The notes: generated from the letters alone by a model not told the origin. A DNA stretch of 64,000 nt from Candidatus Gastranaerophilales bacterium (GCA_944322945.1 CALUQN010000010.1:2230-66229), one strand, 5' to 3'; positions 9,181 through 62,582 are shown, counted from the stretch's first letter. Numbers and translations: made by a program.

Positions 9181-9198
9181 ATTGTAAACTTTTGTATA
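9181..9198 (-). promoter_or_regulatory. HLR1-like direct repeat (1 mismatch)
   Basis: Minus strand reads TATACAAA-AG-TTTACAAT against the consensus (G/T)TTACA(T/A)(T/A)-N2-(G/T)TTACA(T/A)(T/A). Located between the divergent genes 8368..9141 and dfx. Confidence 0.4.
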
Positions 9199-9281: not shown

Positions 9282-9677
9282 ATGACGAAAAAATTAGAAT
9301 TATACCGATGTAATATATGCGGCAATCTTGCAGAAGTAATCATTCCGGGCGCGGGAGAACTCGTCTGCTGCGGTGAGTCGATGGAACTTTTAGAGGCGAA
9401 AAATAATGATGCTGAAGCAAACGAAAAACACGTACCTGTTTTTATGAAAGATGAACAGGGAAAAAATGAAGTCAGAGTGGGTAGTACTCTGCATCCTATG
9501 GAAGAAAACCATTATATTATGTTTATAGAAACAATTACTCCTGATTACAACAGAGCCGAATTGCAGTATTTGCATCCCGGAGAGGAAGCTAAAATGCTAA
9601 TCGGCGAAAAGCTCGGCAAGGAACTTGCCAGAGAGTTTTGTAGTATTCACGGGTTATGGGAGGGCAAAAGTGATTAG
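9282..9677 (+). CDS. dfx: desulfoferrodoxin (2Fe superoxide reductase)
   Basis: N-terminal desulforedoxin CxxC...CC (YRCNICGN...ELVCCGESM). EKHVPV and the SOR domain. RBS AAAGGAG. Confidence 0.9.
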   Translation: MTKKLELYRCNICGNLAEVIIPGAGELVCCGESMELLEAKNNDAEANEKHVPVFMKDEQGKNEVRVGSTLHPMEENHYIMFIETITPDYNRAELQYLHPGEEAKMLIGEKLGKELAREFCSIHGLWEGKSD

Positions 9678-14883: not shown

Positions 14884-14901
14884 GTTACATTTGTTTACAA
14901 A
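14884..14901 (+). promoter_or_regulatory. perfect HLR1 (RpaB-type) direct repeat
   Basis: GTTACATT-TG-TTTACAAA matches the consensus with no mismatch. Located in a divergent intergenic region. Confidence 0.6.
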
Positions 14902-25237: not shown

Positions 25238-26785
25238 CTATAATGTAACTTTTTGTAACGACAAGAGCCGCTTGTTTTCCTCAATTAAAAACTCTTTGCC
25301 GGGTTTTATTTCAATAAAATCCCATGGGAGCGCTGCGTCAAATTCATAGTTGCTTAAAGCAAAAAAGTCTGCGTCTATGGTGTCCTTGGCACAAGATTTG
25401 AACGCCCCGATTTTGCCGCCTTTTTGGTAAACATCAATCAAAAAATCCGTGAGACTCTCGTCTCCGCGGGAGAGTACTGCCTGCCAATAATCCCATTTAA
25501 TGCTTGAAAAGTGTGCAGTAATACCAAGTTTGTGAAATTCTTTTTTCAGAAAGTTAACTTTATTTTCCAGACTTTTTGTTTGCTCTCTTCCGCACCACTG
25601 AAACGGGGTGTTTGCTTTTGGTACAAAACTGGAAAATCCAAATGATATATCAAACCCTTTATTCTCTTCCTTTAGTCGTTTGGCAAGCCGTAAAAGTTCT
25701 TCCAAGTCTTCATCGCATTCTGTCGGCAGCCCCAGCATACCATAGAATTTGACTCCTTTCAGCCCGTTTTCTCTACAAATTTTAACAGCTTCAAAAATTT
25801 GTTCTTCTGTTACATTTTTGTTTATAACCTTGCGCAGACGTTCACTGCCTGCTTCTATTGCAAGAGTTGTATTTTTTTGTCCTGCTGTTACAAGTGTTTT
25901 TATTATATCCGGCTTTACCGCGTCAATTCTAAGGGAAGAGAGGCTCATCTCAATTTTTTCACCGTTTTGTATTTTTTTGTAAATATATTCGCATATATCT
26001 CCAAAGTGAGGATGCGCACTGATTTGAGCGCCTAAAAGTGCTATTTTATTTGTTTTTGACAGTCCCAGTTCTATTACCTTAATAAGTTCGTCATAGGGCA
26101 TAAATCTGAGCGGCAGGTTTAAATAAGAAGCAAGGCAGAAACCGCAGCGGTTTGCGCAGCCTCTTGCAACTTCCACTATAAATGTGTTCTTGAAAAATGC
26201 GTCTTCGCTCAATATCGGAGTATATATACATTCTGTGAGCTTTTTTGTAAGTTTTTTTACTGACTTTTGCGGCTTGGAAGGTACATATATCCCGTCGACT
26301 TTTGAGAGCATTTCAAGAATTTCATTACGTGATTTATCTTTATTATCCTTACAAATTCTTGCTGCTTCAAGGTTTACGTCTTCTCCGTCCCCAATAACGA
26401 TAAAGTCAAAAAAGTTTTTGTACGGTTCAGGGTTTGCGCTCACTACAGGACCTCCGGCAAATATCAGCGGGCAATCCTCTTCTCTTTCGGTTGATTTCAG
26501 CGGAATTTTATATTTGTCAAGCATTGAAAATATCGTCAGAAAATCCATATCAAACGAAAAAGAAAATCCGATTACATCAACATCTTTGAATGAGTGCATT
26601 GTGTTTTTGGTGTCTGAAAATATCATTTCCGCATTGATATCACACATTTCATCAATTCCTTTGAATACCCACAAGAAACCGAGTGATGAAAGTGCAAAAG
26701 ATTTCGGACCCGGAAATGCCATCCACAAGGTGAAGTCAGCATTTTTGTCAGTTATTGGATTGTATAGATAGATATCTTTAGTCAT
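25238..26785 (-). CDS. B12-binding-domain radical SAM protein
   Basis: CANRCGFCLASY CxxxCxxC motif. N-terminal Rossmann-like B12-binding-type region (VIGFSFSF...FAGGP...VIGDGE). Confidence 0.85.
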   Translation of the reverse strand: MTKDIYLYNPITDKNADFTLWMAFPGPKSFALSSLGFLWVFKGIDEMCDINAEMIFSDTKNTMHSFKDVDVIGFSFSFDMDFLTIFSMLDKYKIPLKSTEREEDCPLIFAGGPVVSANPEPYKNFFDFIVIGDGEDVNLEAARICKDNKDKSRNEILEMLSKVDGIYVPSKPQKSVKKLTKKLTECIYTPILSEDAFFKNTFIVEVARGCANRCGFCLASYLNLPLRFMPYDELIKVIELGLSKTNKIALLGAQISAHPHFGDICEYIYKKIQNGEKIEMSLSSLRIDAVKPDIIKTLVTAGQKNTTLAIEAGSERLRKVINKNVTEEQIFEAVKICRENGLKGVKFYGMLGLPTECDEDLEELLRLAKRLKEENKGFDISFGFSSFVPKANTPFQWCGREQTKSLENKVNFLKKEFHKLGITAHFSSIKWDYWQAVLSRGDESLTDFLIDVYQKGGKIGAFKSCAKDTIDADFFALSNYEFDAALPWDFIEIKPGKEFLIEENKRLLSLQKVTL

Positions 26786-27923: not shown

Positions 27924-27941
27924 ATTGTAACAAATTGTAAA
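27924..27941 (-). promoter_or_regulatory. perfect HLR1 (RpaB-type) direct repeat
   Basis: Minus strand reads TTTACAAT-TT-GTTACAAT. The site ends 8 nt before a plus-strand TATAAT (27950..27955). Confidence 0.6.
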
Positions 27942-28017: not shown

Positions 28018-28602
28018 ATGGGTTTCTTCACAGGCGCATACCTTAAAATAATGACCGGAAAGATGAAGCGGCAGCTTCAGAACCGACTCGTGCAAGTGAC
28101 TATGCAGATGAACCGTGTTACCAGACAGATAGGTGACATGGAAAAACAGCTGCAACAACAAGAAAACTCCATGAAAAACGCAGTCAGATACAATACCAGC
28201 ATATTCATGGTTCAACAAATGAATAAAATGGGTATGGGCTCCGGATTAGAAGCAATATTCGGTTCTGCTGTAGGTCAGGCTGACGCAGACGCAGCCGCAA
28301 AAATGAAGTCAATGAGCGATGCAGAACGTATGCAATATCAACAGATGGCATACCAGCAAGCTCAATCAATGGCGCAACAGCAATCAGCAATGAACCAGGA
28401 ATACATAACACAGATGATGGATATGTACAGAGAGGCTCAACTCGAACCGTTGAAGAATATGGAAGACAGTTTGGCAACAGAAAAGGCAACGTTGGAAACA
28501 AGAATTCAAACACTCACCGACCAGGAAAAAGCCGCACAAGAAATGGAAAAACAAGGTGCGAAAGATATGGCACCGGATTACACCGGACAGGGCCAAGGCT
28601 AG
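28018..28602 (+). CDS. Met/Gln-rich coiled-coil protein
   Basis: 194 aa with about 23 Met and more than 30 Gln by my count. No TM helix or signal peptide. Strong terminator downstream. Confidence 0.6.
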   Translation: MGFFTGAYLKIMTGKMKRQLQNRLVQVTMQMNRVTRQIGDMEKQLQQQENSMKNAVRYNTSIFMVQQMNKMGMGSGLEAIFGSAVGQADADAAAKMKSMSDAERMQYQQMAYQQAQSMAQQQSAMNQEYITQMMDMYREAQLEPLKNMEDSLATEKATLETRIQTLTDQEKAAQEMEKQGAKDMAPDYTGQGQG

Positions 28603-32303: not shown

Positions 32304-32321
32304 TTTACATATTGTTACAAA
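32304..32321 (+). promoter_or_regulatory. perfect HLR1 (RpaB-type) direct repeat
   Basis: TTTACATA-TT-GTTACAAA, 20 nt upstream of a candidate -35. Confidence 0.6.
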
Positions 32322-60012: not shown

Positions 60013-60434
60013 TATACGGCAAAGAATTTGAAATAGTTTTTTTACTAGTTTTTGCAGTCTTGTTTGGTTTAATAGCTTATTTGGTGTTCAACATATTAAA
60101 AGGTTCATTTAACGAAATATTTGATTGTGATTATTACGATGAAATTAAATCAAATTCAACTGCTGAACCTCTGAAAATATTTACAACTCGTATTTCCAGC
60201 ATAAACTGGCTCATTTATAGAGGTTTTTATGCTGATGTTGAAATTTATTCTGATTTTATAGTTTTTAAGATTTTTAACAGAGCTTTAGTTGTTAATGATT
60301 TTTCAAAATTAAAGTTAACCGGCAAATTTACCTCAACTTTAATTGTTAATTCTGGTAAAAATAAAATAAAACTTCCGTTAGGTATGGAAGAATATGAATA
60401 TATAAAGAAATTTTTGGAGGAACACAATGTCTAA
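60009..60434 (+). CDS. hypothetical membrane protein
   Basis: TTG start 7 nt after GAGGAGG. One N-terminal TM helix. Overlaps both neighbouring genes. Confidence 0.55.
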   Translation: MIYGKEFEIVFLLVFAVLFGLIAYLVFNILKGSFNEIFDCDYYDEIKSNSTAEPLKIFTTRISSINWLIYRGFYADVEIYSDFIVFKIFNRALVVNDFSKLKLTGKFTSTLIVNSGKNKIKLPLGMEEYEYIKKFLEEHNV

Positions 60435-61161
60435 AACAGCAATAATAATTCCGGCACGCTACGGCTCAAGCCGTTTGGAGGGCAAACCGCTTATAGAAGT
60501 CCTTGGAAAGCCGATAATACAATGGGTTTATGAAAAAGCGCAACAGTCTAAGCTTGCAGATATTATTATTGTCGCGACGGATGATGAAAGAATTTTTAAT
60601 ACCGTAACTTCTTTCGGAGGAAATGTCGAAATGACCTCAACTTCACATAAATGCGGCAGTGACAGAATCAGAGAAGTTGTTGACCGTCATCCTGAGATAT
60701 CTTATATTGTTAATTTACAGGGGGATGAACCTCTGATTACACCGGAAAGTATTGATGAAGTTATTAAAAACGTAAAAGATGATGCTGCCGCTGATATTTC
60801 AACTCTTGTTAGACCGTTGAACGACGAAAATGATATTAATAATCCTAATTTAGTCAAGTGCGTAAGAGATTTAAGCGGATTTGCGCTATTTTTTTCGCGC
60901 TCAAAAATTCCGTATGAAAGAAACTGCGGGATAGCTGAGTTCTGGGGGCACCTTGGAATTTACGGATACAAGCGTAATGCGCTTTTAAAAATGACGTCCC
61001 TTCCACAGTCTCCGCTTGAAAGGACTGAAAGCCTGGAACAACTTAGAGCGCTGGAAAACGGTATGAGAATAAAAACTTCGGTTGTTGACTTTGTTCCTGT
61101 CGGTATTGACACTGCTGATGATCTTGAAAAATTTAAAAGCATTGTTGCATCAAAACTGTGA
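60427..61161 (+). CDS. kdsB: 3-deoxy-manno-octulosonate cytidylyltransferase (CMP-KDO synthetase)
   Basis: AIIIPARYGSSRLEGKPL...VNLQGDEPL. Confidence 0.92.
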   Translation: MSKTAIIIPARYGSSRLEGKPLIEVLGKPIIQWVYEKAQQSKLADIIIVATDDERIFNTVTSFGGNVEMTSTSHKCGSDRIREVVDRHPEISYIVNLQGDEPLITPESIDEVIKNVKDDAAADISTLVRPLNDENDINNPNLVKCVRDLSGFALFFSRSKIPYERNCGIAEFWGHLGIYGYKRNALLKMTSLPQSPLERTESLEQLRALENGMRIKTSVVDFVPVGIDTADDLEKFKSIVASKL

Positions 61162-61186: not shown

Positions 61187-61322
61187 CTTATATAGCAAAT
61201 GCCGCAGCTGCTATAAAAACTCTTCATTCTGAGTGCTGTAGGCGTAGGAATCTCTTTTATTTAGATGTTTAGTTAACGCTCAGTATGCAGACGCTTTGTT
61301 TTTTGACGGATTTTACTATATA
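61187..61322. repeat. MITE-like element, full copy C
   Basis: ACTTATATAGCAAATGCCGC...TTCATTCTGAG...AACGCTCAGTATGCAGACG...GACGGATTTTACTATATAA. Confidence 0.6.
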
Positions 61323-61492
61323 AATCTCTTTTCTGATAAATATATAGAATTTATCAGAAAAATGCTTGCAATTTTTGTTAAATTATATTAATATATCGTT
61401 ATAAATATTTAAGAAAATTAAGAAAAAGCAATATTTATTAATAAAAAATATTAGTGTTTGAATGTGATTAATTAAAATGTAAGGAAAAGACT

Positions 61493-62245
61493 ATGACAGA
61501 AAATGCAGAAATGACTACTACTGAAAATGAAGATCGTCAAAGAATTCTTTTAGCCGATGATGAAGCTTCAATCAGACGTATTCTAGAGACCAGATTAAAA
61601 ATGGCCGGTTATGATGTGTACACAGCTGCTGACGGTGAAGAAGCCGTTAATGCATTTAATAAATATAATCCTGATTTGGTTGTTTTGGATGTTATGATGC
61701 CAAAGATGGACGGTTATGGTGTAACAAGAGAAATCAGACGTACTGCTGATGTTCCGATTATTATCCTGACTGCATTGGGTGATGTTTCTGAAAGAATTAC
61801 AGGACTTGAGCTTGGTGCTGACGATTATGTAATTAAACCATTTTCTCCGAAAGAATTAGAAGCTCGTGTCAAGGCTGTATTAAGAAGAACAAATAACAGA
61901 GAAACGATTACACCGAGCGGCAAAGTTACCAAAAATGTAATAACAACAGGTAATATCAAAATTGATACAGCAAGACGTCAGGTATACAGAAAAAATGACA
62001 GAATTCGTTTAACCGGTATGGAATTTAGTCTTTTGGAACTGCTGGTTAATAATTCAGGGCAGGCATTTTCAAGAAACGAAATTCTCCAGCATGTTTGGGC
62101 TTATCCGCCTGATCACAGAATTGATACGCGTGTTGTTGACGTTCACATTTCAAGATTACGTTCAAAATTGGAATCAGACCCGGCAAATCCTGAATTAATC
62201 TTGACAGCTCGCGGTATTGGATATATGTTCCAGAGAATAAACTAA
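61493..62245 (+). CDS. rpaB: OmpR-family response regulator, RpaB/Ycf27 orthologue
   Basis: DDEASIRRILETRL...TAADGEEA...DLVVLDVMMPKMDGYGV...VPIIILTALGDVSERITGLELGADDYVIKPFSPKELEARV is nearly collinear with cyanobacterial RpaB as I recall it. Confidence 0.8.
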   Translation: MTENAEMTTTENEDRQRILLADDEASIRRILETRLKMAGYDVYTAADGEEAVNAFNKYNPDLVVLDVMMPKMDGYGVTREIRRTADVPIIILTALGDVSERITGLELGADDYVIKPFSPKELEARVKAVLRRTNNRETITPSGKVTKNVITTGNIKIDTARRQVYRKNDRIRLTGMEFSLLELLVNNSGQAFSRNEILQHVWAYPPDHRIDTRVVDVHISRLRSKLESDPANPELILTARGIGYMFQRIN

Positions 62246-62260
62246 ATCTCTAATAAAACA

Positions 62261-62305
62261 AAAAAATACTCCGTAATGGTGATATCACCTGCGGAGTATT
62301 TTTTT
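62261..62305 (+). terminator. rho-independent terminator
   Basis: AATACTCCG...CGGAGTATT followed by a T-run. Confidence 0.7.
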
Positions 62306-62449
62306 ACTTGTAAAATTGCAAATTTTAAATATACTACACAAAGGCTGTCATTTTGATGGCTTTAGCCCGAAGAATCTTTTTTATTTAGATACTTCGCTAA
62401 CGCTCAGTATGACGCTGTTTTGAAAATTTTAGCGGACTTTCTATGTAGT
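62306..62449. repeat. MITE-like element, copy D
   Basis: ACTTGTAAAATTGCAAAT...GTCATTTTGATGGCTTTAGCCCGAAGAATC...GATACTTCGCTAACGCTCAGTATGAC...GCGGACTTTCTATGTAGT. Its arms are exact or near reverse complements of the arms of copy A. Confidence 0.55.
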
Positions 62450-62505: not shown

Positions 62506-62582
62506 GGCGTCTGTCGTCAAGCGGTTAAGACCTCGGATTGTGGTTCCGATATGCATGGGTTCGAATCCCATCAGACGCCCCA
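62506..62582 (+). tRNA. tRNA-His (GUG) with encoded G-1 and CCA
   Basis: An extra 5' G, then acceptor GCGTCTG/CAGACGC. Anticodon loop TTGTGGT. T-loop TTCGAAT. 3' CCCA. Confidence 0.93.

Follow-up and report, generated by a model that had tools for sequence, protein, structure and literature searches.

What does a master regulator of light and redox responses control in a bacterium that does not photosynthesize? The question is raised by a gene near one end of the window analysed here (the whole stretch of DNA under study, 64,000 nucleotides long), whose product resembles RpaB of cyanobacteria, or Ycf27 of red-algal plastids. The window belongs to a Gastranaerophilaceae (Melainabacteria/Vampirovibrionia) MAG of 2.12 Mb in 35 contigs, which is 98.6% complete and has a G+C content of about 38%; the MAG represents a non-photosynthetic gut member of the sister class of the oxygenic cyanobacteria. 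The role of RpaB in such a host is relevant to the recruitment of this regulator to its master position in the light and redox responses of cyanobacteria and red-algal plastids.

The absence of photosynthesis genes, which the earlier note had described for the window, was borne out and extends to the entire genome, since no match to Photo_RC (PF00124) was obtained across the whole 98.6%-complete assembly. The same family is absent from 17 other non-photosynthetic genomes in the phylum and present in six photosynthetic ones. As reaction-centre genes were not found genome-wide, the control of photosystems, phycobilisomes and high-light genes that characterizes RpaB is not found in this host, and, unlike its cyanobacterial counterpart, the regulator is without photosynthesis, phycobilisome or hli genes as possible targets. 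Taxonomy accounts for this combination, because the genome is one of the Gastranaerophilales. The presence of rpaB in a non-photosynthetic lineage is itself already known: Di Rienzi et al. (2013, eLife, PMC3787301) reported that non-photosynthetic Melainabacteria encode homologues of RpaA, RpaB and NblS that "may have another function", Soo et al. (2014, GBE, PMC4040986) extended the presence of RpaA, RpaB and NblS to three orders, and Utami et al. (2018, PMC5877343) repeated the observation for a termite-gut genome. The papers on RpaB in Melainabacteria that we searched deal with gene presence or NblS phylogeny, and we found no regulon, operator, promoter geometry or cysteine loss described in them. 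What is added here are genome-wide counts of the HLR1 operator, the promoter classes that follow it, a link to sigma-28, the loss of a cysteine and a negative result on the conservation of sites; a regulon established from sites bound by the purified protein would be the first for RpaB in any organism other than an oxygenic phototroph. Taken as a whole, we consider it quite likely that the gene encodes an RpaB orthologue that is phosphorylated by a kinase, binds HLR1 and mainly activates lineage-specific genes in non-photosynthetic Gastranaerophilaceae.

The rpaB locus and its orthology

The gene occupies positions 61493..62245 of the plus strand, stop codon included, and these boundaries are exactly those given in the earlier note. 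Its identification combines the open reading frame with the family score and the maximum-likelihood (ML) tree presented below. The product, 250 aa long from an ATG start, is an OmpR-type response regulator, and its translation contains all three of the peptides previously quoted as close to cyanobacterial RpaB (DDEASIRRILETRL, VLDVMMPKMDGYG and LTALGDVSERITGLELGADDYVIKPFSPKELEARV). It comprises a receiver domain (residues 18-127, 61544..61873, plus strand; Pfam PF00072, Response_reg, E 9.8e-32) and a winged-helix domain (residues 170-246, 62000..62230, plus strand; PF00486, Trans_reg_C, E 1.1e-26) that carries the recognition helix DTRVVDVHISRLRSKLE. All phospho-acceptor residues are present in the receiver, namely the acidic pair D22/D23, the Asp in VVLDVMMP, the Thr in ILTA and the Lys in IKPF.

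Both the monocistronic organization proposed for rpaB and the lack of a neighbouring kinase held up. A gap of 331 nt separates rpaB from the preceding gene of its strand (60427..61161), which we take to encode a KdsB-like cytidylyltransferase, and the stop codon is followed by an intrinsic terminator on the plus strand (62260..62305), in which a hairpin with perfect 14-nt arms precedes a U-run; its predicted folding energy is -24.4 kcal/mol (z -7.96), and none of 200 shuffled sequences was equally stable. None of the 12 HisKA kinases in the genome adjoins the gene, all being encoded elsewhere. A ribosome-binding site, AAGGA, can be read 7 nt 5' of the ATG (61481..61485, plus strand), and the 135 nt 5' of rpaB are conserved between genera and contain a candidate sigma-70-type promoter, inferred from the hexamers TTGCAA and TAATAT with a 17-nt spacer (61366..61394, plus strand). 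This candidate scores under the threshold of our consensus scan, and its hexamers are invariant in G003, a genome from another genus. In G003 the kdsB-like gene, rpaB and tRNA-His also occur in identical order, which makes the tRNA-His(GTG) gene found by ARAGORN at 62507..62582 (plus strand) a conserved downstream neighbour.

The locus had further been described as flanked on both sides by MITE-like repeats. These are real: members of one dispersed family lie upstream (61187..61322) and downstream (62306..62449) of rpaB, and the two copies are 76% identical over the 75 nt that align (61224-61298 versus 62348-62422). The family has 58 loci genome-wide, 56 of them intergenic, with a median match length of 112 nt. 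A meaning for this arrangement was considered and rejected, because the family is dispersed, genes flanked on both sides are about as frequent as chance predicts (3 in the genome versus about 2) and the syntenic spacer between rpaB and tRNA-His in G003 lacks the downstream copy; the repeats around rpaB are mobile and incidental to the regulator.

The NCBIfam equivalog model for RpaB (NF045944) gives the product 361.3 bits, above its cut-off of 330, and among the four full OmpR-type regulators encoded in the genome it is the sole one to exceed that cut-off. The runner-up model is MtrA, at 242.8 bits and under its cut-off of 300, while YycF reaches 226 bits and stays under its cut-off of 340. 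MtrA and YycF are the next-best family matches as well as the next-best PDB matches, and WalR-WalK (YycFG) and MtrA-MtrB are by sequence the closest non-cyanobacterial systems, with essential-type OmpR regulators that recognise direct repeats. One could therefore propose that the window encodes a WalR/MtrA-type essential envelope regulator that merely resembles RpaB, and that the excess of HLR1 sites described below stems from duplicated promoters of expanded gene families. We regard this as very unlikely: the protein falls short of both cut-offs, the genes for WalR and MtrA adjoin their own kinase genes whereas the host rpaB is an orphan, and phylogeny places the product in the RpaB clade.

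The tree was inferred by ML with IQ-TREE from 87 sequences of OmpR-type regulators, drawn from 18 genomes of the phylum (6 with and 12 without Photo_RC), together with the four regulators of the host and three PDB sequences, namely S. elongatus RpaA (9dvt) and MtrA and RegX3 of M. tuberculosis. The S. elongatus genome in the sample was recognised by its RpaA, a near-exact match to 9dvt. A comparison of this kind with RpaA and other OmpR regulators had been suggested for the locus, and it puts the window protein inside the RpaB clade (support 95/92 and 98/87) and apart from RpaA. This clade contains one sequence per photosynthetic genome (two of these genomes contribute an SrrA-like paralogue as well) and a sequence from every sampled non-photosynthetic genome except G022. 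Within it, the window protein groups with those of its own family and class, and this group is sister (84/96) to RpaB of the six photosynthetic genomes, in agreement with what the species tree predicts. RpaA sequences form a clade of their own (100/95), to which both 9dvt and the product of another host gene, C4:86211-86906, belong. An identification of the window protein as RpaA was rejected on this ground and because it is only 39% identical to RpaA, as against 70.5% to S. elongatus RpaB. The gene is therefore almost certainly a true RpaB orthologue, as the earlier note had proposed. As a side observation, three genomes of the sister family in the same class (G126, G148 and G160), whose RpaB has an unchanged recognition helix and in which perfect HLR1 copies number just 0-1, encode in addition a divergent RpaB-like protein (L072/L073, about 269 bits) that is found at the base of the clade.

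The closest homologues of the window protein are 84-94% identical to it and span many genera; their sources include "Candidatus Gastranaerophilales", "Avigastranaerophilus" and "Cyanobacteria bacterium SIG30", and some have already been named RpaB by JGI/NCBI. Across the phylum, the RpaB model matches 301 of the 301 genomes sampled, 289 of them above the cut-off. These data bear on the notion that RpaB is a decaying relic without a regulon, in a lineage that lost or never had photosynthesis, a notion that has the absence of photosynthesis genes in its favour and nothing more. The intact frame, the high identity across genera, the phylum-wide occurrence, the promoter hexamers conserved across genera and a recognition helix that is unchanged in 117 of 120 close homologues all speak against it, so that it is effectively refuted by the conservation data and scarcely credible.

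HLR1 sites and promoter geometry

A retained gene of this kind raises the issue of what its product binds. DNA specificity, another point singled out for checking by the earlier note, is predicted to agree with that of cyanobacterial RpaB: the recognition helix DTRVVDVHISRLRSKLE differs from that of S. elongatus RpaB, DTRVVDVHISRLRAKLE, by a single Ala-to-Ser change, the wing is conserved, and the corresponding operator is strongly over-represented in the genome. In its domains, clade, helix and wing the protein is thus like RpaB of Synechocystis PCC 6803 (Rre26/Slr0947) and S. elongatus PCC 7942, and like plastid Ycf27.

The RpaB operator, HLR1, has been defined experimentally as two copies of (G/T)TTACA(T/A)(T/A) that are 2 nt apart (PMC6525291). 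We counted 38 perfect and 62 one-mismatch copies in the host genome. Genomes simulated with Markov models of order 1, 3 and 5, in which the half-site frequency was reproduced, contained 0-3 perfect copies, so that about one is expected and the excess is about 40-fold; a control with the reversed pattern gave two copies in the real genome. About 32 of the 38 perfect copies are intergenic, in a genome with a coding fraction of 89%. Several HLR1 sites precede paralogous genes, which is what duplication of promoters in the wake of a WalR/MtrA-type regulator would lead one to expect, but collapsing the copies by their flanks still leaves 32 independent clusters of perfect sites versus about one expected. 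We consider it quite probable, from these counts, that the HLR1 sites are real operators. Like that of cyanobacteria, the host rpaB is an orphan gene in a genome enriched for HLR1, and the site statistics suggest it as a putative master regulator, the position that the earlier note had assigned to it as a candidate.

Related genomes give a mixed picture. Four other genomes of the family contain 11-14 perfect HLR1 copies each, and photosynthetic genomes contain 0-10, with the maximum in G023 (3.7 Mb), where 2 of the 10 copies adjoin reaction-centre (Photo_RC) genes. Two sister-family genomes of the same class, with an identical RpaB recognition helix, have just 0-1 perfect copies, and this counts against our main reading. 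It can instead be taken to favour a scheme in which the HLR1-like repeats are bound by the RpaA orthologue (C4:86211-86906) or by a further regulator on contig C17, leaving RpaB in control of a different, smaller set of genes. The recognition helix of the host RpaA orthologue closely resembles that of S. elongatus RpaA, and RpaA and RpaB reportedly have some promoters in common in S. elongatus. Against this scheme, the enrichment is seen with the exact RpaB consensus, the RpaB helix is invariant, the RpaA helix differs from it at many DNA-facing positions, and HLR1 was defined by experiment as an RpaB site (PMC6525291). On balance, binding of these sites by RpaA or the C17 regulator appears unlikely, and RpaB rather than a paralogue is, to judge from the helix and the consensus, the likely binder of HLR1. 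The C4:86211-86906 gene (plus strand) is in its own right an RpaA orthologue, sister to photosynthetic RpaA.

A pattern scan of the window located a perfect HLR1, a putative RpaB operator, at 14884..14901 (plus strand), a second at 27924..27941 (minus strand), which lies 77 nt 5' of the gene 28018..28602 and is followed 37 nt on by TACTTTATATA, and an intergenic third at 32304..32321 (plus strand). A fourth perfect match (25242..25259, minus strand) falls within a coding region and is of doubtful function. A one-mismatch copy at 9181..9198 (minus strand) lies 84 nt 5' of a desulfoferrodoxin gene (9282..9677). Autoregulation of rpaB through HLR1 was rejected, as the sequence 5' of the gene contains only matches with three mismatches.

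The sites are strongly biased in both orientation and distance, reading WWTGTAAM-NN-WWTGTAAM on the strand of the gene and ending 72-100 nt before the start codon. Three classes of promoter follow them, and transcription starts were inferred from these promoter-like motifs. Behind 17 HLR1 sites we found TAAAG-N15/16-(G/T)CCGATA, presumably the sigma-28 consensus, with a spacing of 16-18 nt in 11 cases. At nine sites, TACTTTATATA comes 36-37 nt further on, with GCAATT or GAAATT at the -35 position, and in front of a set of genes for large paralogous proteins CTTGAAA-N17-TATAAT begins 16 nt past HLR1. In all three classes HLR1 ends 16-17 nt 5' of the -35 element, which places the centre of the site near -60 relative to the inferred starts. 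The constancy of this offset across three promoter types is a further argument against an origin of the sites in duplicated promoters under a WalR/MtrA-type regulator. A FliA/WhiG sigma factor, which scores 234.8 bits against a cut-off of 189.6, is encoded at C2:26967-27818 and adjoins flagellar rod genes.

Work on Synechocystis has shown activation from RpaB sites whose centres lie about 50 nt 5' of the transcription start and repression from sites that overlap it (PMC6525291). The positions found here resemble the activating ones, so RpaB would mainly activate, and by this analogy a net activator role for RpaB is slightly favoured over other modes of action. Many sites thus occupy an upstream, activator-type position as in cyanobacteria, although the predicted centres lie at about -60 in the host versus about -51 for cyanobacterial RpaB. 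In the reading that we prefer, an RpaB dimer, phosphorylated on the Asp of VVLDVMMP, would bind HLR1 sites centred near -60; from this upstream position it would mainly activate transcription, in the manner of class I activators, from sigma-70-type as well as sigma-28-type promoters.

Candidate target genes

The genes under such control would be unrelated to photosynthesis and mostly of lineage-specific surface, secreted or motility type. Outside the window, genes were called with a simple ORF caller. Apart from one LysM domain, no Pfam family is found among the top 10 HLR1 targets. Further targets include a protein with Chlamydia-PMP repeats, a pilin-like protein, rubrerythrin, the desulfoferrodoxin mentioned above and a GH57 branching enzyme, and one more is, from a reading of its sequence, presumably EF-G. 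The putative targets thus appear to be mostly lineage-specific surface, secreted or motility-type proteins, and they differ from those of cyanobacterial RpaB in that most have no known family and many lie behind sigma-28-type promoters.

The presence of rubrerythrin and desulfoferrodoxin among these genes made an ancestral oxidative-stress regulon an attractive candidate, which the conservation of the sites does not support. Across 20 other genera, HLR1 sites with up to two mismatches precede the superoxide reductase (desulfoferrodoxin) gene in 1 of 20 cases and the rubrerythrin gene in 7 of 20, with a background of 14%; this poor conservation warns against a simple "ancestral redox-stress regulon".

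Several sites precede members of a 14-member paralogous family of 330-865 aa, in which the N-terminus (MG[ML]AASQAR.L..T.R) and a C-terminal helix are conserved and the middle is variable. Members are encoded at C19:25656-27440, C1:16499-18256, C2:166665-167900, C3:109401-111380, C4:69536-71143 and nine more loci, and about 2 kb to the left of the window there is a truncated copy (C10:1-200). In at least six members, the 100 nt or so before the gene contain an HLR1 with no more than one mismatch, and behind five of these sites lies a sigma-28-type promoter. Searches of Pfam, of PDB profiles and of folds returned no match to the family, and its AlphaFold model is confident solely at the long terminal helices. 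It has more than 1,600 homologues, of which the few with names from their source are "hypothetical" or "uncharacterized", one of them from Melainabacteria MEL.A1. The genome has no match to Flagellin_N at E <= 1, though FliA and flagellar rod genes are present. Given this presence of FliA and rod genes without a recognisable flagellin, the 14-member family may represent divergent filament or axial proteins.

A separate set of loci has tandem HLR1 sites 97 nt apart (C2:6212/6309, C26:29871/29968 and C35:86/183), and related sites lie at contig ends (C29:47 and C34:47). The tandem sites precede a strong TTGAAA-N17-TATAAT promoter and then the members of a multi-copy gene family whose products are very large, the one from C15 having Chlamydia PMP repeats. 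The assembly apparently breaks off at contig ends because this promoter is repeated. An assignment of the pairs to rRNA operons was discarded, as no 16S or 23S primer sites are found in the assembly and the loci correspond to the large-protein paralogues.

Signal input and candidate partner kinase

In Synechocystis, C59, the lone cysteine of the RpaB receiver, located in helix alpha-3, is a thioredoxin target and has been described as fully conserved (PMC4361706, PMC9321951). The equivalent residue of the host protein is a Thr, within DGYGVTREIR (window 61700-61730), and the protein is without any cysteine. The same is true of 116 of 120 close homologues, and the cysteine is retained in 15 of the 17 other orthologues sampled, including those of other non-photosynthetic lineages. 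Since the thioredoxin-target cysteine is gone, the thiol-redox input of RpaB has probably been lost in the gut clade, and signalling through RpaB would proceed without it.

These features permit a bolder proposal, that the pairing of RpaB with HLR1 predates, or is independent of, the control of photosynthesis and that in gut Gastranaerophilaceae it became a cysteine-free, phosphorylation-only global activator, positioned some 60 nt before sigma-70-type and sigma-28-type promoters, of a large and lineage-specific surface and motility programme, in which the 14-member family with its long terminal helices might supply the flagellar filament. We put this forward tentatively, as a rather doubtful extension of the main reading. 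The genome nonetheless offers a testable prediction: about 100 good copies of the operator with a constant, activator-type spacing, a candidate kinase and a natural variant of RpaB free of the redox cysteine.

That kinase emerged when a Hik33/NblS-like partner was sought elsewhere in the genome, as the earlier note had advised. The candidate, C19:32580-34409, encodes 609 aa with a TM segment, a periplasmic segment, a second TM segment and HAMP, PAS, HisKA and HATPase domains, and, like rpaB, it is an orphan, no regulator gene being found beside it. Among NCBIfam models it fits NblS best, scoring 341 bits where the cut-off is 1000, and it is the sole match to that model in the genome at E <= 1e-60; each of four other genomes of the class that were searched likewise has a single equivalent match. 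Queries with S. elongatus NblS and a Hik33-like kinase both returned the C19 kinase as the best full-length match, at 259 and 256 bits, and the next matches scored 127 to 136. Orphan status and the HAMP, PAS, HisKA and HATPase domains are shared with the NblS/Hik33-RpaB pathway, but identity to NblS/Hik33 is low (29-34%), and in Gastranaerophilaceae the NblS model leaves the periplasmic part unaligned. The second-best model is WalK, a point in favour of the WalR/MtrA-type alternative that we judged very unlikely above. According to a 2025 preprint, Melainabacteria kinases lie at the root of the NblS clade. Because of the score and the low identity, orthology to NblS is weak and not secure; the C19 kinase is the best candidate and, on its domains and matches, a plausible partner of RpaB. 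In the scheme favoured here, it would phosphorylate RpaB on the conserved Asp of the receiver.

Directly downstream of the kinase gene, and apparently in the same operon, are two small genes on the minus strand (C19:31048-32570) for predicted membrane or secreted proteins of 276 and 230 aa. In Firmicutes, walK is trailed by accessory genes, which this pair recalls.
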